A stretch of DNA of 64,000 nt from Candidatus Daviesbacteria bacterium (GCA_016187035.1 JACPKL010000001.1:14607-78606); one strand, 5' to 3'; counted from the stretch's first letter, positions 14,195 through 63,487 are shown. Notes: a model not told the origin generated them from the letters alone. Numbers and translations are program-made.

Positions 14195-14210
14195 AAAATG
14201 GACTCCTCCA

Positions 14211-15173: not shown

Positions 15174-15242
15174 TTTTTTCTAAAAAATATACTTTCTACG
15201 AAAGACTGTCCCGCTTCGCGTGAAAGTCCCACGGTTTATTTC

Positions 15243-15267
15243 AAAAAAAATCCCGCCACAGCGGGAT
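15243..15267 (-). terminator. Rho-independent terminator after argF
   Basis: Minus strand AUCCCGC-UGUG-GCGGGAU followed by UUUUUUUU. Separates argHGF from pyrB-carAB. Confidence 0.75.
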
Positions 15268-15356
15268 AATCAAACTATATTTTTATCTTCAACAATACAA
15301 AGTTTTTGCATAATTCTTTTTGCTAGTTTATAGGTTTATAGTCTATCTGTCAACTA

Positions 15357-16280
15357 TCAAAACTTCTTCCTGCCAAACTTCATTAAGTATATTAATAATC
15401 CCTTTTGGGAATAGAGTCTATTTTCTGCCTGCAGGAATACTACTGATTGAGGTCCATCTATCACCTCAGATGCTACCTCATTTCCTCTATAAGCAGGCAA
15501 ATCATGCATAAAGATTACATCTTTTTTAGCCAAACTCATTAAACTTTGACTAACCTGATATGGTTGAAAGATTTTTAGTCTTTTTTCTTTATCCTTATCA
15601 CCCATGCTTACCCAAGTGTCTGTATAAATTATGTCTGCATTTTTAACAGCTTCTTCTGGATTTTCAGTTTCTAAAATATTTACTCCAGTAGCTTTAGCTA
15701 TTTGTTTTGCTTTTTGGACTATTTCTTTCTTCATAAAGTAACCTTTAGGTGAAGCGCATCTAAAATCAATGCCTAAAAGAGCACATCCCAATACTAAAGA
15801 ATGCGGCACATTATTTTCCCCATCGCCTAGATAAGCCAGGGTTAAACCCTCAAGCCTTCCTTTAACCTCTAATACAGTTAAAAAATCAGCTAAAGCTTGG
15901 CAAGGATGTTCTAAATCAGATAAAGCATTAATTACAGGCACTTTTGAATTATCTGCTAATTCTTCTAAATCTTTATGAGAAAAAACCCTGGCCACTATCA
16001 GATCAGCCATGCTGGATATTATCTTAGCCACATCTGAGACAGACTCTCTTTTACCTAAACCAACTTCCTGGGAACCAAAATAAACAATATGTCCTCCCAG
16101 TTGGTTAAAAGCTATATCAAAACTTAGTTTGGTTCTCAAACTTGGTTTCTCAAACAGCATTACCATAGTTTTACCTGCAAAATAATTTGCATTTCTTTGC
16201 TTTAACTTTTTTACCAATAAAAGCACCTGCCAAATTTCTTTAGCAGATAAATCTGCTATTGATAAAAAATCCTTTTTCAT
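15357..16280 (-). CDS. argF: Ornithine carbamoyltransferase
   Basis: FEKPSLRTKLSF, HPCQALAD, DTWVSMG and HDLPAYRGNEV motifs. Confidence 0.9.
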   Translation of the reverse strand: MKKDFLSIADLSAKEIWQVLLLVKKLKQRNANYFAGKTMVMLFEKPSLRTKLSFDIAFNQLGGHIVYFGSQEVGLGKRESVSDVAKIISSMADLIVARVFSHKDLEELADNSKVPVINALSDLEHPCQALADFLTVLEVKGRLEGLTLAYLGDGENNVPHSLVLGCALLGIDFRCASPKGYFMKKEIVQKAKQIAKATGVNILETENPEEAVKNADIIYTDTWVSMGDKDKEKRLKIFQPYQVSQSLMSLAKKDVIFMHDLPAYRGNEVASEVIDGPQSVVFLQAENRLYSQKGLLIYLMKFGRKKF

Positions 16281-17524
16281 GCTCCCTTTCCTGTCTGGTT
16301 TGCCAGCTTCATCTGTAAGGAATATACTTCTATAAACCCGGCTGATGCATTGGTATTAAATGGATATCCACCTAAGGAAAAGGACGTATGATCCAATCCA
16401 TATGGCGATGCCATTGCTACCACATCTGCTTTGCCTTTAAACAATTTGACTGTAACTTCACCTGTGGCTTTTTCATTAATAAAATCATTAAAAGCATTAA
16501 TTGCCTTCATAGCCGGATCAAACCATAAGGCTCCATAGCAAAGATAAGCCCATTTTGTATCTATCATTTCTTTTATTTCATTCAGGTTTCTGGTTGAGAC
16601 ATATTTTTCCAAAGCCTTATGAGCCAAAATGATTACATGGGCTGCGGGTAGATCGTAAACTCCACCATTTTTAACTCCAACTAACCTATCTTCAAACATA
16701 TAGACCACTCCCACTCCATGCTTCCCGGCAATCTTGTTTAACTTGATTGTTAATTTAGCCAGGCTTAATTTTTCTCCATTTAGGGCAATTGGCAGTCCTT
16801 TTTCAAAAGTGAGTTTAACTAGTTCCTCTTGATTTGGGGCATCTTTTGGCAGCGTGTGAGTTAAAAATTTCTCAACAGGAGCAATTAAATTTGGTTCTTC
16901 AATTTCTCCACCTTCCCAGGTAATTCCCCACATATTGTCATCACTGCTATAGGGAAAATTTACAGAGGCTGGGACAGGGATGCCATGTTTTTTGGCATAT
17001 TTAATCTCTTCATTTCTATCCATAGCCCATTCCCTGACAGGAGCAATGATTTTCATTTTAGGATCCTCTGTTAAAATATACCCATCAAGTCTCACCTGAT
17101 CATTACCTTTACCAGTACATCCGTGAGCTATGGCATCGCAGCCAAGTTTTTTTGCAATTTTGACAGCTTCTTTTCCTAAAATAGCCCTGCCCATAGGAGT
17201 TGACAGATGATAATTACCCTGATAAGAAGCATTGGCTTTTATACCTTTGGCTAAATATTCATTGGCAAATTCCTCTTTTAGATCCAAAACTATTGCCTCT
17301 ACAGCACCAAATTTAAGAGCTTTCTTTTTTATACTTTCCAAATCATCATGCTGTTGGCCTAAATCAGCTGTTAAAGCAACTACCTGACATTTATAATTGT
17401 CCTGTATCCATTTCAACATCACTGAGGTATCTAAGCCTCCTGAATAAAGAAGTAAAACCTTTTTCGCTTCTCCTGCTTTTCCTTCATATGAAGATACTTT
17501 TATATAATCAGTATTACTTTGCAT
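16277..17524 (-). CDS. argG: Argininosuccinate synthase
   Basis: VLLLYSGGLDTSV PP-loop and AHGCTGKGNDQVR. Confidence 0.95.
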   Translation of the reverse strand: MQSNTDYIKVSSYEGKAGEAKKVLLLYSGGLDTSVMLKWIQDNYKCQVVALTADLGQQHDDLESIKKKALKFGAVEAIVLDLKEEFANEYLAKGIKANASYQGNYHLSTPMGRAILGKEAVKIAKKLGCDAIAHGCTGKGNDQVRLDGYILTEDPKMKIIAPVREWAMDRNEEIKYAKKHGIPVPASVNFPYSSDDNMWGITWEGGEIEEPNLIAPVEKFLTHTLPKDAPNQEELVKLTFEKGLPIALNGEKLSLAKLTIKLNKIAGKHGVGVVYMFEDRLVGVKNGGVYDLPAAHVIILAHKALEKYVSTRNLNEIKEMIDTKWAYLCYGALWFDPAMKAINAFNDFINEKATGEVTVKLFKGKADVVAMASPYGLDHTSFSLGGYPFNTNASAGFIEVYSLQMKLANQTGKGA

Positions 17525-18707
17525 TTTTATTCACCTCCATTCCAATTTTTTGATAAGCCTCTCTAAAAGACATTCCTTTTATAACAAGTTCTAAAGCTTT
17601 TTCTGCTTGATAAAGCTCAGCAGTCATGGAATCTTCCAGCTTTTGCTTATTGGGAATTAAATTTTCCAGTAAAATTTTTGTTACTTTTAAGCAAGATTGG
17701 GTAATTTCAAAACTTTCTATTAATGGTTTTTTAGTATCCTGAAAATCCCTGTTATATCCTGAGACTAGATTAGAAGATAGACTAACTATTTGTGTGTAAT
17801 TTCCTAGCACTAAATGTACTTTTGATCTTAATAACTCTCCTATATCCACATTTTTCTTCTGAGGCATGATTGAAGAACCAGTGGTAACCTGATCTGAAAC
17901 CTCAAAAAAGTCAAATTCAGATGTGGTAAATAACATTACATCAGAGGCAAATTTATTAATTGTTTGTAAAATACTAATTAAGCTGGAAACAACACTTGCC
18001 TCAATTTTTCCTCTTGAATTTTGGCAGTAAGTTGTCTGCTGGACTTTTCCAAAACCTAATAAATTCTTTGTATATTCCCTGTCTAATTCAATTGGCGCTC
18101 CATACCCTGCCCCAGACCCTAAAGGAGATTGGTTATTTAACTTGTAAGCAGTTTTTAGAACCAAAAGATCGTCTTTTAATGATTCCATAAAGCTATCTGT
18201 CCAAAGGGCAATTGTTGAAGGCATAGCTTTTTGCATATGAGTATAGCCTGGCATCAGAATTGATCCATAATTTTTGGAAAACTTTTGGAAATTTTCAATC
18301 AAAGCGAATATTTCTATTTCAATTTGCTCTAAATTCTCATTGCAGTATAATCTTATGGCTGTTAAAACCTGATCATTTCTGGATCTGGCTGTATGAATCT
18401 TTCCCCCAGCCTGACCATATTTATCAGTTAAATAATTCTCTATCTTTGTGTGTACATCCTCCTCTCCTTTTTCTAAAATAAATTTATTTTGGTTATCTAA
18501 TTCAAGAATTTCATTTATCCCTTTCTTAATCTCTGCTAGCTCCTGACTGGAAATAATCCCAATTTTTTTCAACATCTTGGCATGGGCTAAAGAGCCTAAA
18601 CAGTCATATTTGACCAATTTTTGATCCATTATCAGATCTTCCTCTGTTTCAAAGGCTTCAACATCTGGATCTAACTCATATTTATCTTTTTGCCATAACT
18701 TTTTCAT
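17514..18707 (-). CDS. argH: Argininosuccinate lyase
   Basis: Fumarate-lyase signature GSSIMPQKKN, TARSRNDQV and PGYTHMQKA. At 397 aa it is somewhat short at the C-terminus. Confidence 0.9.
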   Translation of the reverse strand: MKKLWQKDKYELDPDVEAFETEEDLIMDQKLVKYDCLGSLAHAKMLKKIGIISSQELAEIKKGINEILELDNQNKFILEKGEEDVHTKIENYLTDKYGQAGGKIHTARSRNDQVLTAIRLYCNENLEQIEIEIFALIENFQKFSKNYGSILMPGYTHMQKAMPSTIALWTDSFMESLKDDLLVLKTAYKLNNQSPLGSGAGYGAPIELDREYTKNLLGFGKVQQTTYCQNSRGKIEASVVSSLISILQTINKFASDVMLFTTSEFDFFEVSDQVTTGSSIMPQKKNVDIGELLRSKVHLVLGNYTQIVSLSSNLVSGYNRDFQDTKKPLIESFEITQSCLKVTKILLENLIPNKQKLEDSMTAELYQAEKALELVIKGMSFREAYQKIGMEVNKNAK

Positions 18708-28328: not shown

Positions 28329-29318
28329 CTAATGATGTTCCTGTTTATGTAACTTTACACCATTATCGTCTACTGTCAAGGTGGCCACTTCATATCCATC
28401 CTCTTTACTCTTAACTCCAGATAGATTAAACCATTTATTGTCATCAGTTATTGCTGAAATTGACACTAAACAATCCTCCTTTTTACCGCTAACCACTTCA
28501 TCCACACTCCAGACTTTACTGTATCTTTTAGTAATTTCTGGATCAGCAGACCACCCTCTCGTCTCACAAGCAGCACCCAAAGCTTTAGCAGCTACTACTG
28601 CCATCACTCCCTCTTCAAATCCACCAATACCCATTATCAGATAAATTCCTTTGTTGTACCTTCGGGGATCAGTACAGGATAAAATAGAAGGCATAAAATC
28701 CCCTGCTTTGATTAAAATCAGATTAACCCCAAACTTTTGACAGGCATTAATATAATGGGCATTCCTATCTCTGTCCATCATGACCACATTAATCTCCGAA
28801 GGTTTAATTTTAAAAGTATCAACTACCTCTGCTAAATTCTCTTCAACAGGATTCCGAATGGAAATCCTGCCTTTAAGCTGTGGTGGGCCAAACAGCTTAT
28901 CCATATAATCAATATCCAAAGGAGTAGGCATTAAACCTTTATGTGACCCAACAGCTATCACAGATACAGCCCCAGGACTATTTAGTTTGGCCGCTTTTGA
29001 ACCTTCCACTACATCATTCACCATATCCAGCTGATGTTTTCCTAAGCCAAAAGTGCCCATTAAAGTTGGTAAGCTTTCCCCATACTGGTGGATATGTTTT
29101 CTGCCCTCAGACCCAACTACCTCCAGTACAAATGGAATGTCAGTTAAAGCTGTATACATGGCATCAACCCCTGTTTGATCTATCAGCTTTTCTCTTGCTT
29201 TAGATTCTTCCTCATCTAAAAAATCTTCTGGTGTGAAACCTTTTTCTTTAATCAGTCTGGCAACTGAAATAGCAGTCAATTCTGTAACTCTGGTTATGTA
29301 TTTTTTGACTTGATTCAT
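28329..29318 (-). CDS. glpX: Fructose-1,6-bisphosphatase class II (GlpX)
   Basis: Collinear GlpX-like blocks VTELTAISVARL, DVVEGS, YMDKL, AGDFMPSILSC and GIGGFEEGVMAV. Confidence 0.8.
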   Translation of the reverse strand: MNQVKKYITRVTELTAISVARLIKEKGFTPEDFLDEEESKAREKLIDQTGVDAMYTALTDIPFVLEVVGSEGRKHIHQYGESLPTLMGTFGLGKHQLDMVNDVVEGSKAAKLNSPGAVSVIAVGSHKGLMPTPLDIDYMDKLFGPPQLKGRISIRNPVEENLAEVVDTFKIKPSEINVVMMDRDRNAHYINACQKFGVNLILIKAGDFMPSILSCTDPRRYNKGIYLIMGIGGFEEGVMAVVAAKALGAACETRGWSADPEITKRYSKVWSVDEVVSGKKEDCLVSISAITDDNKWFNLSGVKSKEDGYEVATLTVDDNGVKLHKQEHH

Positions 29319-29692
29319 GGTGTAATAACCTGAACATCTGTCATTGGAAAATCAGATTTATTGTGTGTAATCAAAGTTAATTTATTTAATTTTGCCTGGG
29401 CTGCTAAAAAGCAATCTAAAAGATGTACCTTTTTTGTCTTTAGACTCATCTTTCGATATTTTGCCGCTATTCTTGCTGCGTCTAAATTCACAGAAAGAAT
29501 TATAAACTCATTTAACAACTTTTCAAATGCTTTTTCTTCTTGAGATGTGGCTTTTGACAAGAATTCTCCTGCCACTATAGAAGAAATCTTAATTTGTTTC
29601 TTTTTGATTAGTTTACTCAAAAGTTCTGATTCTGGAGAATAACCCTTAGCAGCTCTGATAAAGATATTTGTATCCGGTAAATAACCTATCAC
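29315..29692 (-). CDS. vapC: PIN-domain toxin VapC
   Basis: 125 aa. N-terminal acidic residue (LPDTNIF), LLDCFLAAQA and a THN C-terminal region. Overlaps the upstream antitoxin by 4 nt. Confidence 0.8.
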   Translation of the reverse strand: MIGYLPDTNIFIRAAKGYSPESELLSKLIKKKQIKISSIVAGEFLSKATSQEEKAFEKLLNEFIILSVNLDAARIAAKYRKMSLKTKKVHLLDCFLAAQAKLNKLTLITHNKSDFPMTDVQVITP

Positions 29693-29979
29693 TTTCTTAG
29701 TAGCGCTTTTTGCAACCTTTCCTCTCTTACTTCATCTGACAGTCTTCTCTCTTCTCTGACCCAATCTAACCATTCCTGAATTTCTTCATCTGTTCTTTTG
29801 GAACAACCGATAAATTCATCTGCTAATTTTTTCAGGTCAGTTTTTCTTTTTTTATCTTTTTCCAAACGTTCTTTGGCAGCTTTCCTTAAATAATCAGTTA
29901 AACTCTCACCACAGGCTTTACGGTGTTGATCTATTTCTCTGCGTAATTCTTCTGGTAAATAAATTTGAGTCCTTTGCAT
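29689..29979 (-). CDS. vapB: Ribbon-helix-helix antitoxin (VapB-like)
   Basis: MQRTQIYLPEELRREIDQHRKACGESLTDYLRKAAKERL is a typical RHH N-terminus. Confidence 0.7.
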   Translation of the reverse strand: MQRTQIYLPEELRREIDQHRKACGESLTDYLRKAAKERLEKDKKRKTDLKKLADEFIGCSKRTDEEIQEWLDWVREERRLSDEVREERLQKALLRK

Positions 29980-50464: not shown

Positions 50465-50851
50465 TCAAACTTTAGCGAACTGCTTTTCTAGCTTATCATC
50501 AAACGTTCTAAAATCTTCAACCTTGAGCTTCTTCGCATAAAGTAGGTTATAGCAATCTTCTATTTCTAATGTAGTGTTTCTGAATAAATGCAAAACCTCA
50601 AACAATAAATCTCGATTTTCAATATTAAGACTTAAGGTCAGTATCTTGTATAAAGCCTCAGTCAAACTATCTCTATCTTGACCATAACTAGCTTCCAAAA
50701 CCCAGGCTACCTCAAAAAAGACCACCACGGAAGTTATCAATTCCAATTCACCTCGAGCTGCTTTGAGAAATAGCTCTTTAGACTGCTGGTAATGAGAATC
50801 AATATCATTTAGCAAAAATCTAAGGAAGTAGTTTGTATCAACAAAAGTCAT
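50465..50851 (-). CDS. vapC: PIN-domain toxin VapC
   Basis: MTFVDTNYFLRFLLND, with acidic residues spaced as in a PIN domain. Overlaps the antitoxin by 4 nt. Confidence 0.8.
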   Translation of the reverse strand: MTFVDTNYFLRFLLNDIDSHYQQSKELFLKAARGELELITSVVVFFEVAWVLEASYGQDRDSLTEALYKILTLSLNIENRDLLFEVLHLFRNTTLEIEDCYNLLYAKKLKVEDFRTFDDKLEKQFAKV

Positions 50852-51108
50852 TTAATGTGGTATTTTCTTAAAAAATGTTCTTCTTTGGCTTTTCTAACAA
50901 CTTCCTTAATACTGTTACCATACCATCTCTTAGGCAAAGCTACTGATCCAGCAAGCTCCTCCACCACCCTTTCAGCTGGAGTAATCTTTAAAGACCCATT
51001 TTCCTCTGATACCATCACCCTTTGTCCGATTTTGAGCCTAGCTCTTTCAAAAATCTTGGCAGGGATAGTTAATTGTTTTTTGCCAGTAATTGTAGCTATC
51101 TGAACCAT
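50848..51108 (-). CDS. vapB: AbrB/MazE/SpoVT-type antitoxin
   Basis: ITGKKQLTIPAKIFERARLKIGQRVMV, a swapped-hairpin barrel motif. Confidence 0.75.
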   Translation of the reverse strand: MVQIATITGKKQLTIPAKIFERARLKIGQRVMVSEENGSLKITPAERVVEELAGSVALPKRWYGNSIKEVVRKAKEEHFLRKYHIK

Positions 51109-51200
51109 AGTAAGGAAATTATACTATTGCAAGGAAGGAATGTCAATATCAAGGCAAGAAACTAATTAGTTCTTCCCCTTGGCTGGGAAATACTGAATAG

Positions 51201-51950
51201 CTACCAAGGCAATTTTCTGGGTGAAGTCCCATCATATTCAATCTCTTCACTAGGTATTCTTCTGAATGGTTTTTCTCTGACCCATTCTTCAAATACATGG
51301 GCTATGAGTCCTACTACCCTACCGATTAAGAAAAATCCCTTGCCTAACCTGTAGTCAAAGCCCATATCAGAAATAACAGCTGCTATGGCTCCATCCACAT
51401 TAACAGGTATTTTTTTACCTTTCTTTTGCTCTAAAACCTGTTCTACTTTAACTGCCAACTCACAATATTCCCCAAAAAAACCTAATTTTTTAGCCTTTTC
51501 AAAAATCTGTTTAGCTCTGGGATCCTCCGTCTTATAAACTTTGTGTCCAAATCCAGCAATTCTGTCTCCTGCTGCTAATACTTTTTCCACCAATTTTTCA
51601 GCAGACAGGCCCATCTGCAGCAGTCTGGCACATTCTTCAATTGCTCCTCCATGATATTCCCCTATTCCTAATACTCCTGCTGCCACAGCAGCCTGCATGG
51701 GATTGCCGGCAGAGGCAGAATTCCTGGCATTAGTTGTGGATGGCGGACCCATGCCATTATCAATGGTGGAGATTAAAATAGCATCCAGCATAGCTTTCTC
51801 TTTTTCTGTAGGCAGCTCCCCTTTTAATTCCAGCCAGATAGCCGCTGTGAAGTTTACCTTATCCATCAACTCAGTCACTTTATAACCATGAATCAAAGTC
51901 TCCCCATCAACAATTCCAGCAATAGATGTTTTCCACTTTTTATCAGACAT
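51201..51950 (-). CDS. Short citrate-synthase-family protein (citryl-CoA lyase-like)
   Basis: GFGHKVYKTEDPRA citrate-synthase signature in a ~250-aa protein. ATG at 51950 (MSDKKWK) is preferred over the TTG at 51986. Confidence 0.65.
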   Translation of the reverse strand: MSDKKWKTSIAGIVDGETLIHGYKVTELMDKVNFTAAIWLELKGELPTEKEKAMLDAILISTIDNGMGPPSTTNARNSASAGNPMQAAVAAGVLGIGEYHGGAIEECARLLQMGLSAEKLVEKVLAAGDRIAGFGHKVYKTEDPRAKQIFEKAKKLGFFGEYCELAVKVEQVLEQKKGKKIPVNVDGAIAAVISDMGFDYRLGKGFFLIGRVVGLIAHVFEEWVREKPFRRIPSEEIEYDGTSPRKLPW

Positions 51951-51959
51951 AATAGTAAC

Positions 51960-52024
51960 TAGTAACAAGTACAGTAAAGGTAACAAGTTGAAATAAAAAT
52001 AACTTGTTACTTGTGCCTTGTTAC
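51960..52024. repeat. Long imperfect hairpin built from heptamer modules (ACTTGTT/ACTTGTG/CCTTGTT and complement)
   Basis: TAGTAACAAGTACAGTAAAGGTAACAAGT - tgaaataaaaata - ACTTGTTACTTGTGCCTTGTTACTA. Lies between the four-helix-bundle fragment stop and the ccl-like start. Confidence 0.7.
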
Positions 52025-52263
52025 TATTTCTGTGAAATGTATAACCTCCAAATTATATGTCCTGTTTCTGATCTTAGCAAGCAGACATCCTGAAATTCTG
52101 TTTCTTTTATTAATTTTCTCTGGTAAGAAAACTCAAGCAAATATTCCGTTTCTGCAAGCGAGCCTAAGGCTATAGATAAAAATCTATAAAATTCTTTCTT
52201 ACTGTTTCTAGCATGCCCTTCAACAATGTTTGTTGGAACTGATAAGCACGCTCTTTGTAGTTG
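52024..52263 (-). pseudogene. 5'-truncated four-helix-bundle protein gene (23S rRNA intervening-sequence protein family)
   Basis: Not in the ORF track (contains no Met). Own translation: QLQRACLSVPTNIVEGHARNSKKEFYRFLSIALGSLAETEYLLEFSYQRKLIKETEFQDVCLLRSETGHIIWRLYISQK then stop. Matches the family core RA..S...NI.EG..R.S.KEF..FL.IA.GS..E. It begins right after the SucD-like stop, and roughly 40 N-terminal codons are absent. Confidence 0.7.
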
Positions 52264-53169
52264 TTACTTGTCACTTGTGCCTTGTTGCTTTAGTAATTCT
52301 GGGATTTCATCTGGAGTTTTGGCAATAATAACTCCAGCTGCTTTTAAGGCTGTTATTTTTGATTTATAACTGCCCTTATCACCATAAACTATGGCTCCTG
52401 CATGACCAAGTTTTGTACCTTGGGGCAACTTTTCGGCAAATAACCCTGAGATAAAGGCTACCACTTTTTTGCTAAACTTACCACTTTTAATAAGCTGTGC
52501 AGCCTCTTCTTCATAAGTTCCCCCAATTTCTCCAAATAAAACTACTGCTTTAGTTTGCTCATCTTTTTCAAAGTCTACCAATAAATCAGCAAAGCTTGAC
52601 CCCACCAGTATATCTCCTCCAATACCCACAACAGTTGATTGCCCAATGCCATTTTTGGTTAGAATCCAGGATACCTCAGATGCCATTCCCCCGCTTTTAG
52701 AAATTATCCCCACATTTCCTTTAGAATAAACGCCTCTGGGATCATCCCCGCCAATTGAGCCCACTTTACCTATACCTGGAGAAATAATCCCAATAGATGA
52801 GGGGCCTACAATTCTCACTCCATTTTGTTTGGCTAAAGCTATGGCCTTGGCGCTATCTGCTATTGGAATATGTTCTGTTAAAACATTGATTAGAGGAATT
52901 TTGTTATTGATTGCCTCTTCTATTGCACCAAAGGCGGCAAAATTTGGCACAGCTATGAAAGAGGTATTAATCCCGGGGTGATTATCCAATGCTTCAGAAA
53001 CTGTATTATATACAGGTATTCCGGAAACCTCATATCCACCCTTACCAGGAGTTACTCCGGCTAAGACTTTAGTTCCATAATTCCTCATCTGTAAGGCTGC
53101 TTTAGAGCCTTCTTTACCAGTGATACCCTGGATTAAAACCTTAGTCTTTTCTGTTACTAAAACACTCAT
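52264..53169 (-). CDS. Succinyl-CoA synthetase alpha-subunit family protein (CoA-binding plus CoA-ligase domains)
   Basis: VLIQGITGKEGS, SKSGGMASEV and phosphohistidine loop LGHAGAIV. The C-terminal QQGTSDK is encoded by a heptamer module. Confidence 0.8.
   Translation of the reverse strand: MSVLVTEKTKVLIQGITGKEGSKAALQMRNYGTKVLAGVTPGKGGYEVSGIPVYNTVSEALDNHPGINTSFIAVPNFAAFGAIEEAINNKIPLINVLTEHIPIADSAKAIALAKQNGVRIVGPSSIGIISPGIGKVGSIGGDDPRGVYSKGNVGIISKSGGMASEVSWILTKNGIGQSTVVGIGGDILVGSSFADLLVDFEKDEQTKAVVLFGEIGGTYEEEAAQLIKSGKFSKKVVAFISGLFAEKLPQGTKLGHAGAIVYGDKGSYKSKITALKAAGVIIAKTPDEIPELLKQQGTSDK
52266..52286. repeat. Heptamer module ACTTGTC-ACTTGTG-CCTTGTT (3' end of the SucD-like gene)
   Basis: Third copy of the module. 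Together with 51960-52024 it brackets the truncated four-helix-bundle gene. Confidence 0.75.
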
Positions 53170-53202
53170 ATGAATTCTTTACTCCTTTTTTTATCTTCGT
53201 AG

Positions 53203-53252
53203 ATTTAAGATGTAAGAATTAAGAATTAAGATCTTAAATCGTAAATCATAAA
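53203..53252. repeat. Intergenic heptamer tract with central palindrome TTAAGATCTTAA
   Basis: ATTTAAG ATGTAAG AATTAAG AATTAAG ATCTTAA ATCGTAA ATCATAA ATC. Confidence 0.7.
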
Positions 53253-54485
53253 TCACTTAACTCCATATGCTAACTCCACCATGATTTTTGCAGTTGAAGT
53301 CATTGGAGTCTCCCTGCCAAATATATGAAAATCAAACCCTTCCTTACGGCCTACTCTTTTTAGCTCCTCAAAAGCTTCCTGATCCCTTGGCCCGCCTCTT
53401 CTTATCACAATTGGGTAAGCAGGCTTTGGTTTAATTTCCCTAAGCCCTTCTACAAAGCCCATTAAAGTTTCATAAATATCAGTAAAATTGGCTGTGCCTC
53501 CCACAAACCAACAACCCTTAAGTCCTGGTTTTCCTAGAACAATTTTAGTTAATTTTTTCAATTTTTCTCTGGGAGGGTTGCCTGAGTGTTCAGTATAATT
53601 AGCCGCCCTTCCTCCAAAAGTTACTAAAGCATCCATGTTAACTATAGACCCTCCACCTCCTGCAGCAATGACTGCAATGTCTCCATCCCGAAGGTCCCAA
53701 TAAACAGAGCCTGCAGTACCTCTGTGATCTCCTTCATCTATTTTTCTGGCTTCAATTTCAGCCTCAGTTGGGGGTCTGCCAAACAAATTTCTTTGGGGAA
53801 ATTTAATTTCCCTTCTAAAGTCTGCATCATCGTCCAAGATAACTTTGGCATCTAAAGCATAGACTCTCTTGTCATTGCGAGGTCCGCCCTGGCGGACCGT
53901 GGCAATCTTTCCATTTGAGATGGAAGATTCCTCGCTTATGCTCGGAATGACAGAAGTGGTAGAAACTACCAAAGGATTTATTTCTGCCAGTTCTAAGTCA
54001 TATTTTGTGAATACCTCCCAAAGCTCTGTAATAGTATCTGTAAATTGGACATAATGTTCAACGATCGTTGAAGGTAACGTCATATTTAGAGGATCAACAG
54101 GAAAACTCTCTGCGCCTTTTTCCTCTACTCCTGTCCCACCTTTGCCAAAAGTTAACACAGGTCCTCTTGTTGCTGTGGAGTATGAGAAAGACAGATAATA
54201 CTCCTTACCAACATCAACCATTTGTTCAACTAAAACCTTCTCCACCTTCTCATTGTTAATTGTCTTTGAAAGTAATTCTTCAATCTTAAATCTTAAATCT
54301 TCCATCTTCTCTACCACCAAAATCCCCCCAGCTTGTGCTCTTTTTCCAGACAAAACTTGAGCTTTCAAAACCAAAGGAAGTTTTAAGGTTACTTCCTGAT
54401 CTGCAGATTCTAAGAGTTGTGACTGGGGAACATTAATCCCACAACTTTTAAAAAGTTGTTTGCCTTCAAATTCGAAGAGTTGCAT
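53253..54485 (-). CDS. Succinyl-CoA synthetase beta-subunit / ATP-citrate-lyase beta-like ATP-grasp protein
   Basis: N-terminal ATP-grasp (MQLFEFEGKQLFKSCGI). C-terminal ligase-CoA-like IAAGGGGSIVNMDALVTFGGRAANYTEHSGNP. Carries an 81-bp family-A element in-frame between the halves. Confidence 0.75.
   Translation of the reverse strand: MQLFEFEGKQLFKSCGINVPQSQLLESADQEVTLKLPLVLKAQVLSGKRAQAGGILVVEKMEDLRFKIEELLSKTINNEKVEKVLVEQMVDVGKEYYLSFSYSTATRGPVLTFGKGGTGVEEKGAESFPVDPLNMTLPSTIVEHYVQFTDTITELWEVFTKYDLELAEINPLVVSTTSVIPSISEESSISNGKIATVRQGGPRNDKRVYALDAKVILDDDADFRREIKFPQRNLFGRPPTEAEIEARKIDEGDHRGTAGSVYWDLRDGDIAVIAAGGGGSIVNMDALVTFGGRAANYTEHSGNPPREKLKKLTKIVLGKPGLKGCWFVGGTANFTDIYETLMGFVEGLREIKPKPAYPIVIRRGGPRDQEAFEELKRVGRKEGFDFHIFGRETPMTSTAKIMVELAYGVK
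53871..53951. repeat. Palindromic element family A, 81 bp, in-frame in the SucC-like gene
   Basis: GTCATTGCGAG-GTCCGCCCTGGCGGAC-CGTGGCAATCTTTCCATTTGAGATGGAAGATTCCTC-GCTTATG-CTCGGAATGAC. Translated as SVIPSISEESSISNGKIATVRQGGPRNDK. Confidence 0.9.
54285..54301. repeat. Heptamer tract CTTAAAT x2.4 (in the SucC-like gene)
   Basis: See 4229-4259. Confidence 0.8.
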
Positions 54486-54488
54486 AGC

Positions 54489-55781
54489 TTAAAGTTTTTT
54501 TCTGAACTGATCGTAGCTGGTTAAAGAAGGAGTACGCTTGGATACCTGATACTGCTGTTTAACTAAAATCCTGGTGTTGTCTTTGACATCTTCATGCAAA
54601 ACCACCCCTGGGCCAATCAGGCAGTTTACTCCAATCCTGACTCCAGGCATGATTGATGCATTTACTCCTACTCTTGAGCCTTTACCAGCTACTGTCCCCA
54701 GTTTGGTTCTGCCTGTATCAATTTTTTCATCCCCTATTCTAATTGTAGCATCATCCAGCCTGAGATTAGCTAAAACTGCACCAGATCCCATCCCAAAATC
54801 CCCTTCTATTACAGAGTCTCCTACATAATTGGTATGAAACCAGCTGTTTCTGCCTATATATGAGCGGGTGATATCGCAGTTAAAACCTGTTACCACCCCT
54901 TCTTCTAAAATAGATTCCCTGATCATAGTGTTGTTACCAACAATGACATTCTTGCCAATGTAACAAGGGCCTTTAATGACAGCCCCTTCAAACACTTTTG
55001 CTCCCTCTTCTATCTTCACATTACCCTCTATAATTGCTTTATCAGACACTTTTGACCCCGGGGAAATATTTTGTTCAAGTGTGGATAAAAAGTAAGCCCC
55101 TGTTTCTAAAATCTGCCAGGGATATTTTAAAGGAATCCACACTCCGTTATATCTAATAAACCTGACATCACAACTATCACAAATCTTAGCTAAAGCTACT
55201 TCATAAACATCATCTTTTTCACTTGAAGCTTCTTCTAGATATGAAACCAGCTTTCCACCATCTCTAAAATAATCTACTACTAGTTTAACTAAATCAGACG
55301 GTTCATTACCCTTGCCAGGTTTTTCCACTATACCCTGTATCCTATCCCTTTTAACCTCTAAATATCCTCCCGGAAAATAACTTTTAACCTGCAAACCTGA
55401 CAAAACCACATCAGATTGAGTATCTGAAGCTGTAGTCAAAACATCCTGATAAACTCTTTCTTCCAAAACATCCTCAGCATTAATAACCAAAATCTCACCG
55501 TTTATATCCTCTTTTGCAGATAAAAGCGCATCTGCCATACCTTTAGGTTCTTCTTGGATAGCTATTTTGTGCTTTATGCCTAGGCTTGAGGCTATTTGAG
55601 AAACCTGATCCCTTGAGGCTTCTTTGGTAACTATAATTACTTCATCAAAGTTTATTCCATCAGCTATTCTTTTCAGAGTATAAGAGATCAAAGGCTGGCC
55701 TAAAAAGGGAATCAGATACTTATCAGTCTGAATAGGCCACATTCTTTTGCCTTCCCCCCCGGCTAGAATTATTATTTTCAT
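54489..55781 (-). CDS. Sugar-phosphate nucleotidyltransferase fused to a left-handed beta-helix domain (GlmU-like architecture)
   Basis: MKIIILAGGEGKRMWP (NTP-transferase G-loop). The C-terminal half has hexapeptide-repeat periodicity (IGKNVIVGNNTMI..). Confidence 0.75.
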   Translation of the reverse strand: MKIIILAGGEGKRMWPIQTDKYLIPFLGQPLISYTLKRIADGINFDEVIIVTKEASRDQVSQIASSLGIKHKIAIQEEPKGMADALLSAKEDINGEILVINAEDVLEERVYQDVLTTASDTQSDVVLSGLQVKSYFPGGYLEVKRDRIQGIVEKPGKGNEPSDLVKLVVDYFRDGGKLVSYLEEASSEKDDVYEVALAKICDSCDVRFIRYNGVWIPLKYPWQILETGAYFLSTLEQNISPGSKVSDKAIIEGNVKIEEGAKVFEGAVIKGPCYIGKNVIVGNNTMIRESILEEGVVTGFNCDITRSYIGRNSWFHTNYVGDSVIEGDFGMGSGAVLANLRLDDATIRIGDEKIDTGRTKLGTVAGKGSRVGVNASIMPGVRIGVNCLIGPGVVLHEDVKDNTRILVKQQYQVSKRTPSLTSYDQFRKKL

Positions 55782-56559: not shown

Positions 56560-56634
56560 TGGTGGCAGCGACAGGGATCGAACCTGTGACCTAGCGGTTA
56601 TGAGTCGCTCGCTCCGCCACTGAGCTACGCTGCC
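56560..56634 (-). tRNA. tRNA with anticodon CAU; G1-C72 paired, so elongator Met (or Ile2 if lysidine-modified); CCA encoded
   Basis: Own fold of the reverse complement: GGCAGCG-TA-GCTC-AGTGGCG-GAGC-G-AGCGA-CTCATAA-CCGCT-AGGTC-ACAGG-TTCGATC-CCTGT-CGCTGCC-ACCA. Confidence 0.85.
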
Positions 56635-56695: not shown

Positions 56696-58069
56696 ATGAA
56701 TGATTCAGAAAAATTTATAGAAAAAATGGCTGGGGCTCCAGCTTATGTTCTGGATAAAACTTTGGATACCTCAAGGCAGATAGGTGAAACAATCATTACC
56801 AAAAAACAGATAGGCCATGCCAGGAATTACTGGAAATCATTAGGACCAGGGGTTATCACCGGCGCTGCTGATGACGACCCTTCCGGGATCACCACCTATT
56901 CTCAGGCTGGAGCAATGTATGGTTTTAATCTGCTTTGGCTGTCTGCTTTCACCTTTCCTTTAATGGCTATTGTGCAGGAAATGTGTGCCAGAATTGGCCT
57001 GGTAACCGGCAGGGGTCTAGCTGCCAATATCAGGCAGTATTTTCCTAAGTGGGTGCTATATCTGGCCACATTTTTGCTATTTTTTGCCAATTCTTTAAAC
57101 ATTGGAGCAGATTTGGGTGCTATGGCTAAAGCAACTCAACTGATTTTCCCTAAATTGACCTTTACTTCCCTTCTTTTAACTTTTACCACCCTTTCTTTGG
57201 CCCTGCAGATCTTTACCACTTATGAAAAGTATGCTAAATACCTAAAATGGCTGGCTTTGGTATTATTATCTTATGTTTTCTCTGCTTTAACTTTAAATTT
57301 AAATTGGGGGATGATTTTACAAAAAGCTGTGGTGCCTGCCATTACTTTTTCCCGCGATCAGATCTTTTTAATTACAGCTGTTTTAGGCACTACTATTTCA
57401 CCTTATTTATTTTTTTGGCAAACCTCACAAGAAGTTGAAGAACAGATCTTAGGCGGCAAAACTACCCTTAAATTGCGCCGGGAAGAAACTACACCTTTAG
57501 AGATTGGAAACATGAGAACAGATGTCTGGTCTGGCATGTTTTTGTCAAACTTGGTAATGTTTTTTATCATTGCAGCCTGTGCTGCCACACTTTTCACTGC
57601 CGGTATTACAATTACTACTGCCTCTGATGCTGCCCAAGCCTTAAGGCCTATTGCCGGTGAGCAGATTTATCTGCTTTTTGCTTTAGGAATTATTGGAACC
57701 GGGATGTTGGCTGTGCCAATTTTGGCTGGATCTGCCTCTTATGCTTTATCTGAAAGTTTTGGCTGGAAATTGGGATTATATAGAAAGCTGAAAGAGGCTA
57801 ATGCTTTTTATGGAGTGATTATTATTTCAACCGGTATCGGATTAGCTATTAATCTGTTAGGTTTTGATCCTATTAAGGCTTTAATTTATTCAGCTGTGGT
57901 CAATGGGTTAATTGCTCCAGTGGTATTAGTTTTAATAGTATTAATGAGTGGTAATCAAAATATTATGGGCAGATGGACCAATGGCGCTCTCACTACCCTA
58001 CTTGGATGGTTTATTACCCTACTGATGGCTGCAGCAGGCCTAGCCACTATCTTCTATTTATTTGTCTAA
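56696..58069 (+). CDS. NRAMP-family divalent metal cation transporter
   Basis: 457 aa with ~11 TM helices. GPGVITGAADDDPSGITTYSQAGA resembles the NRAMP DPGN-region. Confidence 0.75.
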   Translation: MNDSEKFIEKMAGAPAYVLDKTLDTSRQIGETIITKKQIGHARNYWKSLGPGVITGAADDDPSGITTYSQAGAMYGFNLLWLSAFTFPLMAIVQEMCARIGLVTGRGLAANIRQYFPKWVLYLATFLLFFANSLNIGADLGAMAKATQLIFPKLTFTSLLLTFTTLSLALQIFTTYEKYAKYLKWLALVLLSYVFSALTLNLNWGMILQKAVVPAITFSRDQIFLITAVLGTTISPYLFFWQTSQEVEEQILGGKTTLKLRREETTPLEIGNMRTDVWSGMFLSNLVMFFIIAACAATLFTAGITITTASDAAQALRPIAGEQIYLLFALGIIGTGMLAVPILAGSASYALSESFGWKLGLYRKLKEANAFYGVIIISTGIGLAINLLGFDPIKALIYSAVVNGLIAPVVLVLIVLMSGNQNIMGRWTNGALTTLLGWFITLLMAAAGLATIFYLFV

Positions 58070-58122: not shown

Positions 58123-58194
58123 CGCGGGGAAGTGTAACGGCTGCACACAAGGCTCATAATCTTGAGGCAGTGGGTTCGACTCCCGCCCCCGCAA
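58123..58194 (+). tRNA. tRNA with anticodon CAU and a C1xA72 mismatch: probable initiator tRNA-fMet with atypical D-arm and anticodon stem
   Basis: CGCGGGG..GTGT-AACGGCTGC-ACAC..CAAGG-CTCATAA-TCTTG-AGGCA-GTGGG-TTCGACT-CCCGC-CCCCGCA-A. No encoded CCA. Lacks the three consecutive G-C pairs usual in initiator anticodon stems. About 1 nt short of canonical length. Confidence 0.65.
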
Positions 58195-58440
58195 CCTTTT
58201 TTAATCTTAAATTTCTTCATTCTGTTGGGGCATTAAACAAAATTAAAAAATGATAAAAAAAGTTGGTTATAATGTTGACCATAGGCAGTTTGATAAAGAT
58301 AGTTTCATGTTGCCCATTCTACTTTTTAGAAGTAAAGATAAATTGCCTTTTTGTGTAAGAAAATAGTAATAGATGAGTGTTTTATATTGAAATTAGAGAT
58401 AAGAATCTGTTAAAGTTTGTAAGAAGTTTACGAAAGTCTT

Positions 58441-62737: not shown

Positions 62738-62995
62738 ATGAAAACTGTCAGTATTGTTCGAGATAGAGGTCAGCTAACGATACCTGATTCTATTCGTAGG
62801 GTTGTAAATTGGATTGCTCCTATGTCTGCTGTATCTATTTCTGTTGTAAAACCTGATGAGATTATTATCAAACCCCACCAGCAACAAATTGATTGGGATC
62901 AGGTTTGGGAAAATATAAGAAAATCTAGAGCCAGTTTAGGTAAGGGTAAGATTAGTGCAGCAGAATTTTTAGAGCAGGATCGTAGATCACATTAA
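62738..62995 (+). CDS. vapB: AbrB/MazE-type antitoxin
   Basis: IVRDRGQLTIPDSIRRVVNW swapped-hairpin motif. Stop overlaps the vapC start. Confidence 0.75.
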   Translation: MKTVSIVRDRGQLTIPDSIRRVVNWIAPMSAVSISVVKPDEIIIKPHQQQIDWDQVWENIRKSRASLGKGKISAAEFLEQDRRSH

Positions 62996-63414
62996 TGAAT
63001 ACCCTAGTTATTGACACATCAGTATTTGTCAAATGGTTAAGCCAAAATAATGAACAAGATCTAGAAAATGCAGATAAAATTCTCCAGGACGTTAAAAATG
63101 GTCAAGCAGAACTTATAGTTCCGGAGTTAATTAAATACGAAGTTGGAAATGTTCTTCTAAAAGGTAAGCAATTAACACCAAATCAAGCACATATTTCTTT
63201 TGGGACTGCATATTCCTTACCGATTACCTTCATTGCAGATTCAGAGCAACAGGCAAAAGATACTTACTCCCTCGCTTATAACTTAGGAATTAACTACTAT
63301 GACGCCTCGTTTATGTCATTGGCTAAACAATATAATGCTACACTAGTAACGAATAACATAAAACACCAAGGAAAAGATTCAACTATTAAAGTTGTCGCAC
63401 TTAAAGATTACTAA
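62995..63414 (+). CDS. vapC: PIN-domain toxin VapC
   Basis: MNTLVIDTSVFVKWL and YDASFMSLAKQYNATLVTNN. PIN acidic residues are present. Confidence 0.8.
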   Translation: MNTLVIDTSVFVKWLSQNNEQDLENADKILQDVKNGQAELIVPELIKYEVGNVLLKGKQLTPNQAHISFGTAYSLPITFIADSEQQAKDTYSLAYNLGINYYDASFMSLAKQYNATLVTNNIKHQGKDSTIKVVALKDY

Positions 63415-63415
63415 G

Positions 63416-63487
63416 TGGGCGGACCAGGATTTGAACCTGGAACCAAATCTGTATAAGAGATTTGCTCTACCGTTGAGCTATCCGCCC
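63416..63487 (-). tRNA. tRNA-Ile with anticodon UAU (reads AUA)
   Basis: Own fold of the reverse complement: GGGCGGA-TA-GCTC-AACGGTA-GAGC-A-AATCT-CTTATAC-AGATT-TGGTT-CCAGG-TTCAAAT-CCTGG-TCCGCCC-A. All stems are Watson-Crick paired. No encoded CCA. Confidence 0.85.

Follow-up and report, generated by a model that had tools for sequence, protein, structure and literature searches.

A probable citryl-CoA synthetase and citryl-CoA lyase gene set next to a GlmU-like gene in Candidatus Daviesbacteria

Within the 64,000-nucleotide stretch of DNA analysed here (the window), the genome of Candidatus Daviesbacteria, an ultra-small CPR bacterium, carries three same-direction genes whose products recall the beta and alpha subunits of succinyl-CoA synthetase (SCS) and a short citrate synthase (CS). 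Do these genes form a citrate-cleaving system, or does a plain SCS (SucCD) lie beside a CS fragment? An earlier note, made from the sequence alone, proposed a two-step ATP-dependent citrate cleavage of the CcsAB plus Ccl type and kept SucCD as the alternative. Domain architecture, conserved gene order, the states of key residues and the nearest characterised homologs indicate that the trio very probably splits citrate to acetyl-CoA and oxaloacetate with ATP. The gene inventory of the note held up: all three ORFs lie on the minus strand where it had placed them (Table 1), and they encode the ATP-grasp beta-like protein (Pfam ATP-grasp_2, 95.6 bits, 4e-27), the alpha-like protein with its phosphohistidine loop, which reads LGHAGAIVYGD, and the citrate-synthase-family protein of about 250 aa (Pfam Citrate_synt, 4e-43). 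Three features had escaped the note: the GlmU-like gene upstream of beta, a gene remnant between alpha and the third gene, and the ACL-type citrate-binding domain of beta.

Table 1. Predicted features of the citrate-cleavage locus, in window coordinates.
Feature	Position	Strand	Size or description	Basis
Citryl-CoA synthetase large subunit (beta, CcsA/AclB-like)	53253..54485	-	410 aa	Pfam, PDB, motifs
Citryl-CoA synthetase small subunit (alpha, CcsB/SucD-like)	52264..53169	-	301 aa	Pfam, motifs
Citryl-CoA lyase (CCL), short citrate-synthase-family	51201..51950	-	249 aa	NCBIfam NF004869, 6hxp_A
Archaeal-type GlmU-like sugar-1-phosphate nucleotidyltransferase / LbH acetyltransferase	54489..55781	-	430 aa, bifunctional	Pfam NTP_transferase, Hexapep
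23S_rRNA_IVP gene remnant	52030..52263	-	truncated, four-helix-bundle	PF05635, 75.5 bits
24-nt direct repeat, upstream copy	52266..52289		alpha gene 3′ end	repeat search
24-nt direct repeat, downstream copy	52002..52025			repeat search
Promoter-like site upstream of CCL	52052..52080	-	TTGCTA-17-TATAAT	consensus match 10/12

The beta subunit has an N-terminal ATP-grasp domain, and its C-terminal half is the citrate-binding domain of ATP-citrate lyase (ACL) (PF16114 Citrate_bind, 89.2 bits against a cutoff of 26.8, 3e-25). Both domains are present in 120/120 of the closest beta homologs, and residues 183–200 form a Ser-rich disordered insertion. The best PDB match, over the full length, is the large subunit of the Hydrogenobacter thermophilus citryl-CoA synthetase (CCS) (6hxq_B, 181 bits), ahead of Chlorobium limicola AclB (127 bits) and SucC (85 bits), and the same structure ranks first in a Foldseek search with the AF2 model (pLDDT 91.4). 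Identity is 34% to H. thermophilus CcsA and 29–34% to characterised enzymes. The four substrate-site motifs (AAGGGGS, EHSGNP, GGTANFTD and IRRGGP) are all in the ACL/CCS state and not that of SCS: their counterparts are TAGGGAS, EYSGDP, ANFTD and VRRGGP in AclB and GNGAGLV (GAGL), DIGGGA (DxGGGA), GGITR (GGI[TV]R) and MRVAGT (R[VL]xG[TN]) in SucC. The citrate-binding residues of AclB/CcsA, which the earlier note had named as a check, are thus found in the citrate and not the succinate state. Human ACLY R379 and N346/T348 we take to be substrate-site residues equivalent to these loops. The motif positions correspond to G281-283, S308 and F347 of human ACLY (PMC11365397, PMC10115795). Phylogeny, a second check that the note had suggested, gave a similar picture: in a rough neighbour-joining tree without bootstraps, beta falls within the CCS/AclB radiation, apart from SucC, as its own CPR/DPANN clade.

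The alpha subunit, preceded by an AAAGGAG Shine-Dalgarno sequence, combines CoA_binding (4e-22) and Ligase_CoA (1e-17) Pfam domains and carries the phosphohistidine loop LGHAGAIV (H256) together with TEHIP (E99), SKSGGMASE and GEIGG. Its S159-G160-G161 align without gaps with S663-G664-G665 of human ACLY, where SCS has S-G-T, and this local motif is the only ACL-like one. Among PDB matches, alpha is nearer to SCS-alpha (2yv2_A of Aeropyrum pernix, 292 bits) than to the characterised CCS-alpha (6hxq_A of H. thermophilus, 219 bits), so alpha alone does not discriminate between the two families.

The third gene was called by the program as an ORF at 51201-51986 with a TTG start (261 aa, carrying GFGHKVYKTEDPRA). 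The true start is the ATG at 51950, which gives a protein identical to NCBI MBI2596603.1, named citryl-CoA lyase; a length of 249 aa is consistent with the 246-254 aa of its orthologs. It passes the NCBIfam citryl-CoA lyase models NF004869 (309.2 bits against a cutoff of 212) and NF004866 (255.9 against 245), and shares 50% identity with H. thermophilus CCL (6hxp_A, 251-261 bits), whereas no citrate synthase scores above 89 bits. Equivalents of the CS catalytic residues are kept in EYHGGA (H274), GFGH (H320), DPR (R329), NVDG (D375) and GR (R401), and these motifs are also conserved in relatives of type A, the subtype to which the window belongs. The GxGH histidine is followed by Lys, in contrast to the Arg of CS and of H. 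thermophilus CCL. We rejected a full-length citrate synthase (about 370-430 aa), as the protein covers only positions 164-353 of the 357 in PF00285, and the best NCBIfam CS model reaches 105 bits against cutoffs of at least 330.

Like CcsA/CcsB plus Ccl of H. thermophilus (PDB 6hxq, 6hxp), the trio is made up of three individual proteins, and the domains are alike: both systems carry an ATP-grasp and a citrate-binding domain, the phospho-His loop and catalytic residues of the CS type. The trio differs in its beta loops, which read ANFTD, E[HY]SGNP and RRGGP as in AclB, whereas CcsA has ANNTR, DIGGNP and RRNGP, and in its alpha subunit, which lacks the C-terminal extension of the 353-aa CcsB and is overall nearer to SCS-alpha. 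The host is also a non-autotrophic, TCA-poor CPR bacterium, in which the trio is associated with glmU and genes for the cell wall and not with the reductive TCA cycle. With AclB/AclA (C. limicola, 6hxj; Methanothrix, 6hxi) the trio shares the beta substrate-site motifs and PF16114, as well as the S-G-G of alpha. In ACL, however, the alpha and citrate-synthase-homology parts are fused into a single chain of about 610-630 aa, while here they are separate ORFs of 301 and 249 aa; we therefore rejected an assignment as ATP-citrate lyase (AclAB, EC 2.3.3.8). The same separation is seen in 80/80 relatives. The score of beta is also lower to AclB than to CCS.

A 2022 preprint (bioRxiv 10.1101/2022.10.25.513756) has already pointed out CCS/CCL homologs in CPR/DPANN and also describes their mis-annotation as SCS or CS; homologs have likewise been noted for a few DPANN MAGs (PMC8091004). 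The trio is of this gene family and comes from the lineages treated there. As far as the accessible portions of these two sources go, neither its two subtypes and residue states nor the conserved operon association with a GlmU acetyltransferase and the dcw/mur cluster is described. The enzyme type is already known; here it stands in one operon with an acetyl-CoA-using GlmU. The literature that we searched returned no enzyme assay of any CPR member.

By analogy with the characterised enzymes, the beta/alpha heteromer would act as citryl-CoA synthetase (EC 6.2.1.18): ATP bound in the ATP-grasp domain of beta would phosphorylate His256 of alpha, the phosphate would move to citrate held in the C-terminal citrate-binding domain of beta, and CoA would displace it to give (3S)-citryl-CoA. 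The separate citryl-CoA lyase (EC 4.1.3.34) would then employ the His/His/Asp set of citrate synthase for a retro-Claisen cleavage to acetyl-CoA and oxaloacetate. We propose that the trio runs toward cleavage on scavenged citrate and that its acetyl-CoA may feed a co-transcribed GlmU-type GlcN-1-P acetyltransferase, and hence UDP-GlcNAc and peptidoglycan precursors; oxaloacetate would be a by-product that could go to aspartate. We consider it likely that the system is a split citrate cleavage of the Hydrogenobacter type working in this way.

The genomic context bears on this proposal. A GlmU-like gene lies 3 nt upstream of beta in the window and is probably co-transcribed with the trio. Its product scores 260 bits with TIGR03992 (Arch_glmU), under the cutoff of 292, and its best PDB match is ST0452 of S. 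tokodaii (5z09_A/2ggo_A; full length, 160 bits). We identified relatives of the trio in 475 species genomes and sampled about 80 CPR/DPANN genomes for gene order. The order beta-alpha-CCL is kept in essentially all 80 loci examined, and alpha adjoins beta in 72 of the 79 loci called. A GlmU-like gene is located upstream on the same strand in 32/39 type A loci, largely from closely related Daviesbacteria in which synteny is common by descent, and in 0/31 type B loci; archaeal loci also lack the link. Where GlmU is split, its acetyltransferase half abuts beta, as an archaeal-type LbH gene (loci L032 and L038) or as part of a bacterial-type split GlmU (L003), and several of the GlmU-linked loci are at or inside an mraZ-rsmH-PBP-mur/glmS cluster. 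The position of the GlmU-type gene in the type A loci suggests that acetyl-CoA from the trio serves peptidoglycan precursors. The transporter gene that recurs in the neighbourhood encodes an Nramp metal transporter, which is no known citrate carrier.

Because the GlmU acetyltransferase half, archaeal or bacterial in type, repeatedly shares an operon with the trio near or inside the mraZ/mur/glmS cluster, we put forward, tentatively and at somewhat less than even odds, that the trio is a dedicated acetyl-CoA generator tied to cell-wall precursor synthesis in TCA-less, host-dependent CPR, and no leftover from central carbon metabolism. If so, citrate scavenged from the host or the environment would supply the N-acetyl groups in both UDP-GlcNAc and peptidoglycan, and would be a specific metabolic dependency of these symbionts.

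The ACL and CCS plus CCL reaction is near equilibrium, so its direction is unreadable from sequence, and we infer both the cleavage direction and the physiological role. Running in reverse, CCL would condense acetyl-CoA and oxaloacetate, and CCS would convert citryl-CoA, ADP and Pi to citrate, ATP and CoA. Such an ATP-conserving citrate synthase could give a fermenter that is short of energy either one more substrate-level phosphorylation or a way to make 2-oxoglutarate; we regard both the reversal and this use of it as unlikely, though they are the alternatives that survive best. The ACL of Desulfobacter postgatei has reportedly been proposed to work as an ATP-conserving citrate synthase. [quoted passage not shown] In the Iainarchaeum locus (L060, a DPANN archaeon), aconitase and isocitrate dehydrogenase (IDH) immediately precede the trio on the same strand, with no citrate synthase visible there, and this arrangement fits a path from acetyl-CoA and oxaloacetate through citrate and isocitrate to 2-oxoglutarate just as readily as the opposite one; the type B loci, with no GlmU link, are compatible with it too. 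Against reversal, the window has no aconitase, IDH or oxaloacetate-generating carboxylase, and acetyl-CoA production is suggested by the close operon association, seen repeatedly, with an acetyltransferase that consumes acetyl-CoA. Cleavage is further favoured because cellular oxaloacetate is normally very low.

Could a CCS/CCL-like pair instead act on another carboxylate and yield a different acyl-CoA, the substrate being perhaps some other hydroxy-di- or tricarboxylate like 2-methylcitrate, citramalate or malate? The separation of the CPR/DPANN clade from both characterised clades in the neighbour-joining tree, the modest identity of beta to characterised enzymes and the Lys in CCL would allow it. 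However, the beta loops ANFTD, RRGGP and EYSGxP are those of citrate-specific AclB, the aconitase and IDH beside the Iainarchaeum trio point to citrate, and CCL is half identical to a citryl-CoA-specific enzyme. We consider another substrate improbable.

The alternative that the earlier note had kept in reserve, a plain SucCD beside a citrate-synthase fragment, whether unrelated or degenerate, is effectively refuted. SucCD does have the same fold and the same phosphohistidine mechanism, beta and alpha find their highest-scoring NCBIfam models in SucC and SucD, alpha is overall most like SCS-alpha, and some databases call the relatives “succinyl-CoA synthetase beta.” Yet the curated cutoffs are missed by beta for SucC (NF001913, 139.2 bits against 370; TIGR01016, 138 against 375.6) and by alpha for SucD (NF004230, 297 against 336; TIGR01019, 297.5 against 353.2), and beta departs from SCS in its C-terminal domain and at every diagnostic loop. 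The supposed fragment is a full-length CCL with its catalytic set intact, and it is always alongside, the three genes occurring together in about 80 genomes. Where a firm clustering in SucCD and a non-lyase citrate-synthase clade would have refuted the note, we found instead 6hxq_B and 6hxp_A as the best matches and beta motifs of the ACL/CCS kind, in agreement with its main proposal.

Equally remote is a role as the citrate-cleaving step of the reductive TCA cycle in autotrophic CO2 fixation: CPR genomes are small, at about 1 Mb, and generally lack a TCA cycle, and the 64-kb window holds no OGOR, fumarate reductase, aconitase, IDH or other TCA enzyme. This is the classical role of CCS and CCL in Aquificae (Aoshima 2004), but according to the preprint (bioRxiv 10.1101/2022.10.25.513756) the cycle is complete in few of the taxa that bear CCS/CCL, and a partial TCA cycle has been mentioned for CPR (PMC11608272).

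Lastly, the 277-nt gap between alpha and CCL in the window, a point against the proposed reading, holds a truncated 23S_rRNA_IVP remnant, which is no part of the enzyme system. It covers positions 34-103 of the 106 in the PF05635 profile, and thus its N-terminus is missing. We detected no minus-strand terminator-like site from glmU to the end of CCL. The remnant is flanked by 24-nt direct repeats with 92% identity, and the insertion also contains the promoter-like site, identified by consensus match only, which could keep CCL expressed.

The three co-directional genes described in the earlier note at 51201-54485 are present on the minus strand of the window, and their domain matches fit. The beta protein combines ATP-grasp_2 (95.6 bits) with PF16114, the citrate-binding domain of ATP-citrate lyase (ACL) (89.2 bits; cutoff 26.8), the alpha protein carries the Pfam domains CoA_binding and Ligase_CoA, and the lyase matches Citrate_synt (148 bits) over the C-terminal part of the profile only. 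All of these matches are far beyond chance. Translation of the lyase from the ATG at 51950 gives 249 aa, the same sequence as NCBI MBI2596603.1, and a length that agrees with those of orthologs (246-254 aa). The trio and the gene next to it are named by NCBI as citryl-CoA lyase, CoA-binding protein, acetate--CoA ligase family protein and NTP transferase domain-containing protein; among these four consecutive proteins, only the lyase has a name true to its function. The host lineage belongs to the Microgenomates group of the CPR/Patescibacteria.

Positions of the trio and of neighboring features (window coordinates unless a locus of a relative, L-number, is given)
Feature	Position	Strand	Detail
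Beta ORF	53253-54485	minus	410 aa
Beta residues 183-200	53886-53939		pLDDT < 50
Alpha ORF	52264-53169	minus	301 aa; LGHAGAIVYGD
Lyase ORF, as listed from TTG	51201-51986	minus	contains GFGHKVYKTEDPRA
23S_rRNA_IVP remnant ORF	52030-52263	minus	between CCS-alpha and CCL
24-nt direct repeat of alpha 3′ end around IVP remnant	52002-52025 and 52266-52289		92% identity
Sigma-70 consensus match	51118-51146	minus	TTGACA-17-TATAAT, 12/12
Toxin-antitoxin-like gene pair	50465-51108		86 aa + 128 aa, 4-nt overlap
Comparable small gene pairs	29315-29979 and 62738-63414
Arginine biosynthesis cluster	9957-18707	minus	carB-carA ... carbamoyltransferase-argG-argH
Nramp-family transporter gene	56696-58069	plus
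tRNA genes	56560-56634, 58123-58196, 63415-63487		two tRNA-Met(CAT), one tRNA-Ile(TAT)
Citrate-node cluster	L060:4788-12114	one strand	Candidatus Iainarchaeum
Proteins downstream of CCL	L006:11394-12692, L008:11437-12807, L012:12212-13522, L024:10834-12126		~430-456 aa

The lyase scores above the cutoffs of both NCBIfam citryl-CoA lyase (CCL) subfamilies (NF004869, 309 vs 212; NF004866, 256 vs 245) and well under those of all citrate synthase models. Its top solved structure is the Hydrogenobacter thermophilus CCL (6hxp_A, 261 bits), followed by citrate synthases at no more than 89 bits and the C-terminal modules of ACL at about 67 bits. For beta, the top structure is the large subunit of H. 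thermophilus citryl-CoA synthetase (CCS) (6hxq_B, 181 bits, aligned over 1-397), ahead of Chlorobium limicola AclB (127 bits) and Thermus SucC (85 bits). The AlphaFold2 model of beta (pLDDT 91.4, confident outside residues 183-200) also has 6hxq_B at Foldseek rank 1, with succinyl-CoA synthetase (SCS) and ACL structures close behind; because one fold is common to all three, this ranking discriminates among them at rank 1 only. BLASTP against reference sequences rebuilt from structure-search alignments gave 50% identity between the window lyase and H. thermophilus CCL, and 34% between beta and CcsA, compared with 27-28% for SucC. The alpha protein has archaeal SCS-alpha as its best structure match (292 bits), above H. 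thermophilus CCS-alpha (219) and AclA (170), and SCS-alpha is the top match for the whole protein and the 82-aa active-site segment alike. On its own, alpha thus does not discriminate between CCS and SCS.

The earlier note read the trio as CcsAB plus Ccl, and the curated models, the solved-structure matches and the substrate-loop residues support this. On the question of phylogeny that it raised, a rough neighbor-joining tree of beta without bootstraps places the protein in the CCS/AclB radiation and not with SucC. In this tree, all trio betas (types A and B, below) form one CPR/DPANN clade, which is distant from SucC and branches apart from both H. thermophilus CcsA and C. limicola AclB. The family is compact, as an exhaustive search of 50%-representatives found only 134 clusters at E ≤ 1e-30. 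We conclude that the trio is very probably CCS plus CCL.

We compared the beta motifs of the window and ~76 relatives with those of C. limicola AclB, H. thermophilus CcsA and Thermus and E. coli SucC. The citrate-binding residues of AclB and CcsA, another point of the earlier note, are in the ACL/CCS state in the beta loops, unlike in SucC.

Beta-subunit motifs at the substrate loops
Site	Window and relatives	AclB	CcsA	SucC
Human ACLY G281-283	AAGGGGS	TAGGGAS	TFGGGGS	GNGAGLV / VNGAGLA
Around human S308	E[HY]SGNP	EYSGDP	DIGGNP	D[IV]GGGA
Around human F347	GGTANFTD	ANFTD	ANNTR	GGI[TV]R
Arg-rich strand	IRRGGP	VRRGGP	VRRNGP	MRVAGT / VRLEGN

The roles of G281-283, S308, F347, E599, S663, G664-665 and H760 are those described for human ACLY (PMC11365397, PMC10115795). 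Alpha has an intact phospho-His loop, and its TEHIP motif provides the equivalent of E599. Ungapped mapping puts the S-G-G of SKSGGMASE on S663-G664-G665, where SCS-alpha has S-G-T; alpha is ACL-like at this motif only. The lyase retains all residues that correspond to citrate synthase H274 (EYHGGA), H320 and R329 (GFGHKVYKTEDPRA), D375 (VNVDGA) and R401 (IGRVVG), in pig citrate synthase numbering. The beta loops, alpha motifs and lyase catalytic set therefore indicate the active sites of a citrate-activating and citryl-CoA-cleaving pair. The beta loops are nearer to those of C. limicola AclB than to those of H. thermophilus CcsA, whereas in overall similarity and unfused gene organization the trio resembles H. 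thermophilus CCS/CCL. Such ACL-type substrate loops in the unfused arrangement of a CPR/DPANN clade bear on the origin of ATP-citrate lyase by fusion.

In the proposed reaction, ATP would phosphorylate the alpha His, the phosphate would be transferred to citrate to form citryl phosphate, and attack by CoA would yield (3S)-citryl-CoA, which the stand-alone lyase would cleave to acetyl-CoA and oxaloacetate. We consider citrate cleavage by CCS and CCL a probable explanation of the trio. A scheme of this kind was reportedly given for CCS by Aoshima et al. in 2004. The steps follow those of SCS, ACL and CCS (PMC10115795; PMC11365397). The in vivo direction would be cleavage, presumably of imported citrate. 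The same enzymes could also run in reverse and yield ATP, as the overall CCS plus CCL reaction is near equilibrium, but we consider this unlikely.

A plain SucCD next to a citrate synthase fragment, the alternative named in the earlier note, is ruled out by the motifs together with the below-cutoff scores against SucC (beta, 139; cutoff 370) and SucD (alpha, 297; cutoffs 336-353). An ADP-forming acetyl-CoA synthetase, as implied by the NCBI name of beta, is rejected as well, since it would account neither for the citrate-binding domain nor for CCL as an obligatory partner. A role in rTCA carbon fixation is rejected, as the partner enzymes are absent from the window; the earlier note asked about other TCA enzymes in the genome, and the 64 kb of the window show none.

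Further support for citrate as the substrate comes from a relative. Locus L060, from a DPANN archaeon, encodes aconitase, isocitrate dehydrogenase, CCS-beta, CCS-alpha and CCL in a row, next to a malic enzyme on the opposite strand and then an ADP-forming acyl-CoA synthetase alpha subunit. This is a compact citrate-node cluster, and the aconitase and isocitrate dehydrogenase beside its trio are independent evidence for citrate.

When one genome was scanned for each GTDB species, 475 species genomes had relatives, and most of these carry the annotation "acetate--CoA ligase family", "CoA-binding protein", "succinyl-CoA synthetase" or "gltA". We examined the best 80 loci of these 475 genomes, which are from Daviesbacteria, Woese-, Woyke-, Curtiss-, Giovannoni- and Colwellbacteria, other Patescibacteria and some DPANN archaea. 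Essentially all of them have beta, alpha and lyase in this order on one strand, the exceptions being contig ends or ORF-calling gaps. Two subtypes were distinguished. Type A (n = 43, including the window) has a lyase of ~250 aa with at least 44% identity to that of the window; its identity with H. thermophilus CCL is ~49%. Type B (n = 36; L031, L039-L055, L058, L061-L074, L076, L078-L080) has a ~225-aa putative lyase that lacks ~25 C-terminal residues, shares ~37% identity with H. thermophilus CCL and falls under the NCBIfam CCL cutoff (160 vs 212). Type B loci are set among dnaG-rpoD-NUDIX housekeeping genes, and TrpS lies downstream of the trio in both types. None of the 80 genomes sampled has both types. 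No description of the two types, or of AclB-like loops in an unfused arrangement, was found in the literature searched. Loci L035 and L056 are titled "Candidatus Nanoarchaeia archaeon", but their contigs carry bacterial mraZ and rsmH beside the trio, so we do not accept the titles as evidence of an archaeal origin; the label is doubtful and points to misbinning or mislabelling of MAG contigs.

Only 3 nt upstream of beta in the window is a gene for a 430-aa protein with NTP-transferase and left-handed-beta-helix (LbH) parts. Its closest solved relative, over the full length, is Sulfolobus tokodaii ST0452, a sugar-1-P nucleotidyltransferase that also acetylates GlcN-1-P at the expense of acetyl-CoA. 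Where the contig extends at least 1.5 kb upstream of the trio, a GlmU-like gene precedes it on the same strand in 32 of 39 type A loci and in 0 of 31 type B loci; such a gene is also present in L054, a type B locus with a shorter upstream stretch. The gene takes several forms. Daviesbacteria have a fused archaeal-type GlmU. In L032, L034, L035, L036, L038 and L057, an LbH-only gene (a match to only the acetyltransferase half of Arch_glmU) lies right before beta, divergent from mraZ-rsmH-ftsL-PBP-murE/F-NTP-transferase-murC. L075 has glmS-glmU-x-trio. In L003, a bacterial-type GlmU is split, with a 4-nt overlap between beta and the acetyltransferase half, and the whole block is flanked by a Mur ligase and murC-murB-murA-glmS. 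Thus, two non-orthologous acetyltransferase types occupy the same position, with the acetyl-CoA-using half adjoining the trio. This is our main argument that the trio feeds acetyl-CoA to GlcN-1-P acetylation. The variety of architectures is stronger evidence than the 32/39 count, which exaggerates independence because many of the 32 loci are closely related. We put the complete proposal, that is trio identity, cleavage direction and supply of acetyl-CoA to GlmU, at about an even chance. In the literature searched, we found no earlier statement of the GlmU link and no description of an operon that joins the trio to the GlmU acetyltransferase and dcw/mur cluster.

CPR bacteria are regarded as nearly devoid of central carbon metabolism and are mostly unculturable. 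A citrate-cleaving system spread over 475 species genomes alters the reading of their metabolic maps. A CPR "gltA" is still treated as partial TCA in PMC11608272; such genes are probably not TCA genes, and would then be a route from an imported metabolite to acetyl-CoA and oxaloacetate. If the GlmU link is true, citrate is a concrete nutrient to try in CPR cultivation, and there is a testable path by which a host metabolite would reach the cell wall of the symbiont. The enzyme system itself is already known from H. thermophilus (6hxq, 6hxp). A 2022 preprint (10.1101/2022.10.25.513756) reports CPR and DPANN sequences annotated as SCS or citrate synthase that are monophyletic with CCS or CCL, and PMC8091004 reports CCS/CCL in a few DPANN MAGs. 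The trio is therefore an additional member and no new kind of system, and the outcome is a sound and useful re-annotation, together with a hypothesis on physiology that can be tested.

In the window, no terminator-like site was found on the minus strand between glmU and the lyase end, and alpha has the ribosome binding site AAAGGAG. Alpha and lyase mostly overlap or lie a few nt apart in relatives; here they are separated by 277 nt that hold the remnant of a truncated 23S_rRNA_IVP gene (four-helix bundle), which matches the profile from position 34 to 103 of 106. The lyase ORF is intact, and a promoter-like consensus match (TTGCTA-17-TATAAT) lies within the remnant, upstream of the lyase. IVP genes or other small ORFs also occur inside the trio in other Daviesbacteria (L006, L015, L016, L033, L037), and the trio operon thus appears to be a recurrent insertion site. 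Beta has a Ser-rich insertion of ~30 aa in its ATP-grasp domain, of which residues 183-200 are predicted to be disordered; beta length varies at this spot among Daviesbacteria orthologs, from 363 to 443 aa.

The window has ~37% G+C and a strong minus-strand gene bias. It encodes carA/carB, ornithine/aspartate carbamoyltransferase, argG, argH, a class I aldolase, GlpX, an ATP-dependent DNA ligase and ZIP and Nramp transporters. It thus holds an arginine biosynthesis cluster in a CPR genome. Oxaloacetate made by CCL may go to aspartate, and the aspartate consumed by argG could derive from it; the window shows no aminotransferase. No recognizable citrate carrier was found beside the trio in the window or related loci. 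The Nramp-family metal transporter gene adjoins the glmU-trio block, as it does in 16 type A loci, in either orientation. Several Daviesbacteria (L006, L008, L012, L024) encode a conserved soluble protein right downstream of CCL, with no TM segments in any of the four and no counterpart in the window; neither that of L008 (456 aa) nor a neighboring unrelated 491-aa ORF in L020 has a Pfam match. Just 3′ of the CCL stop in the window, the sigma-70 consensus match precedes a gene pair that is AbrB/PIN-type toxin-antitoxin-like by appearance. Of the tRNAs listed above, tRNA-Ile(TAT) is an uncommon means of reading AUA.
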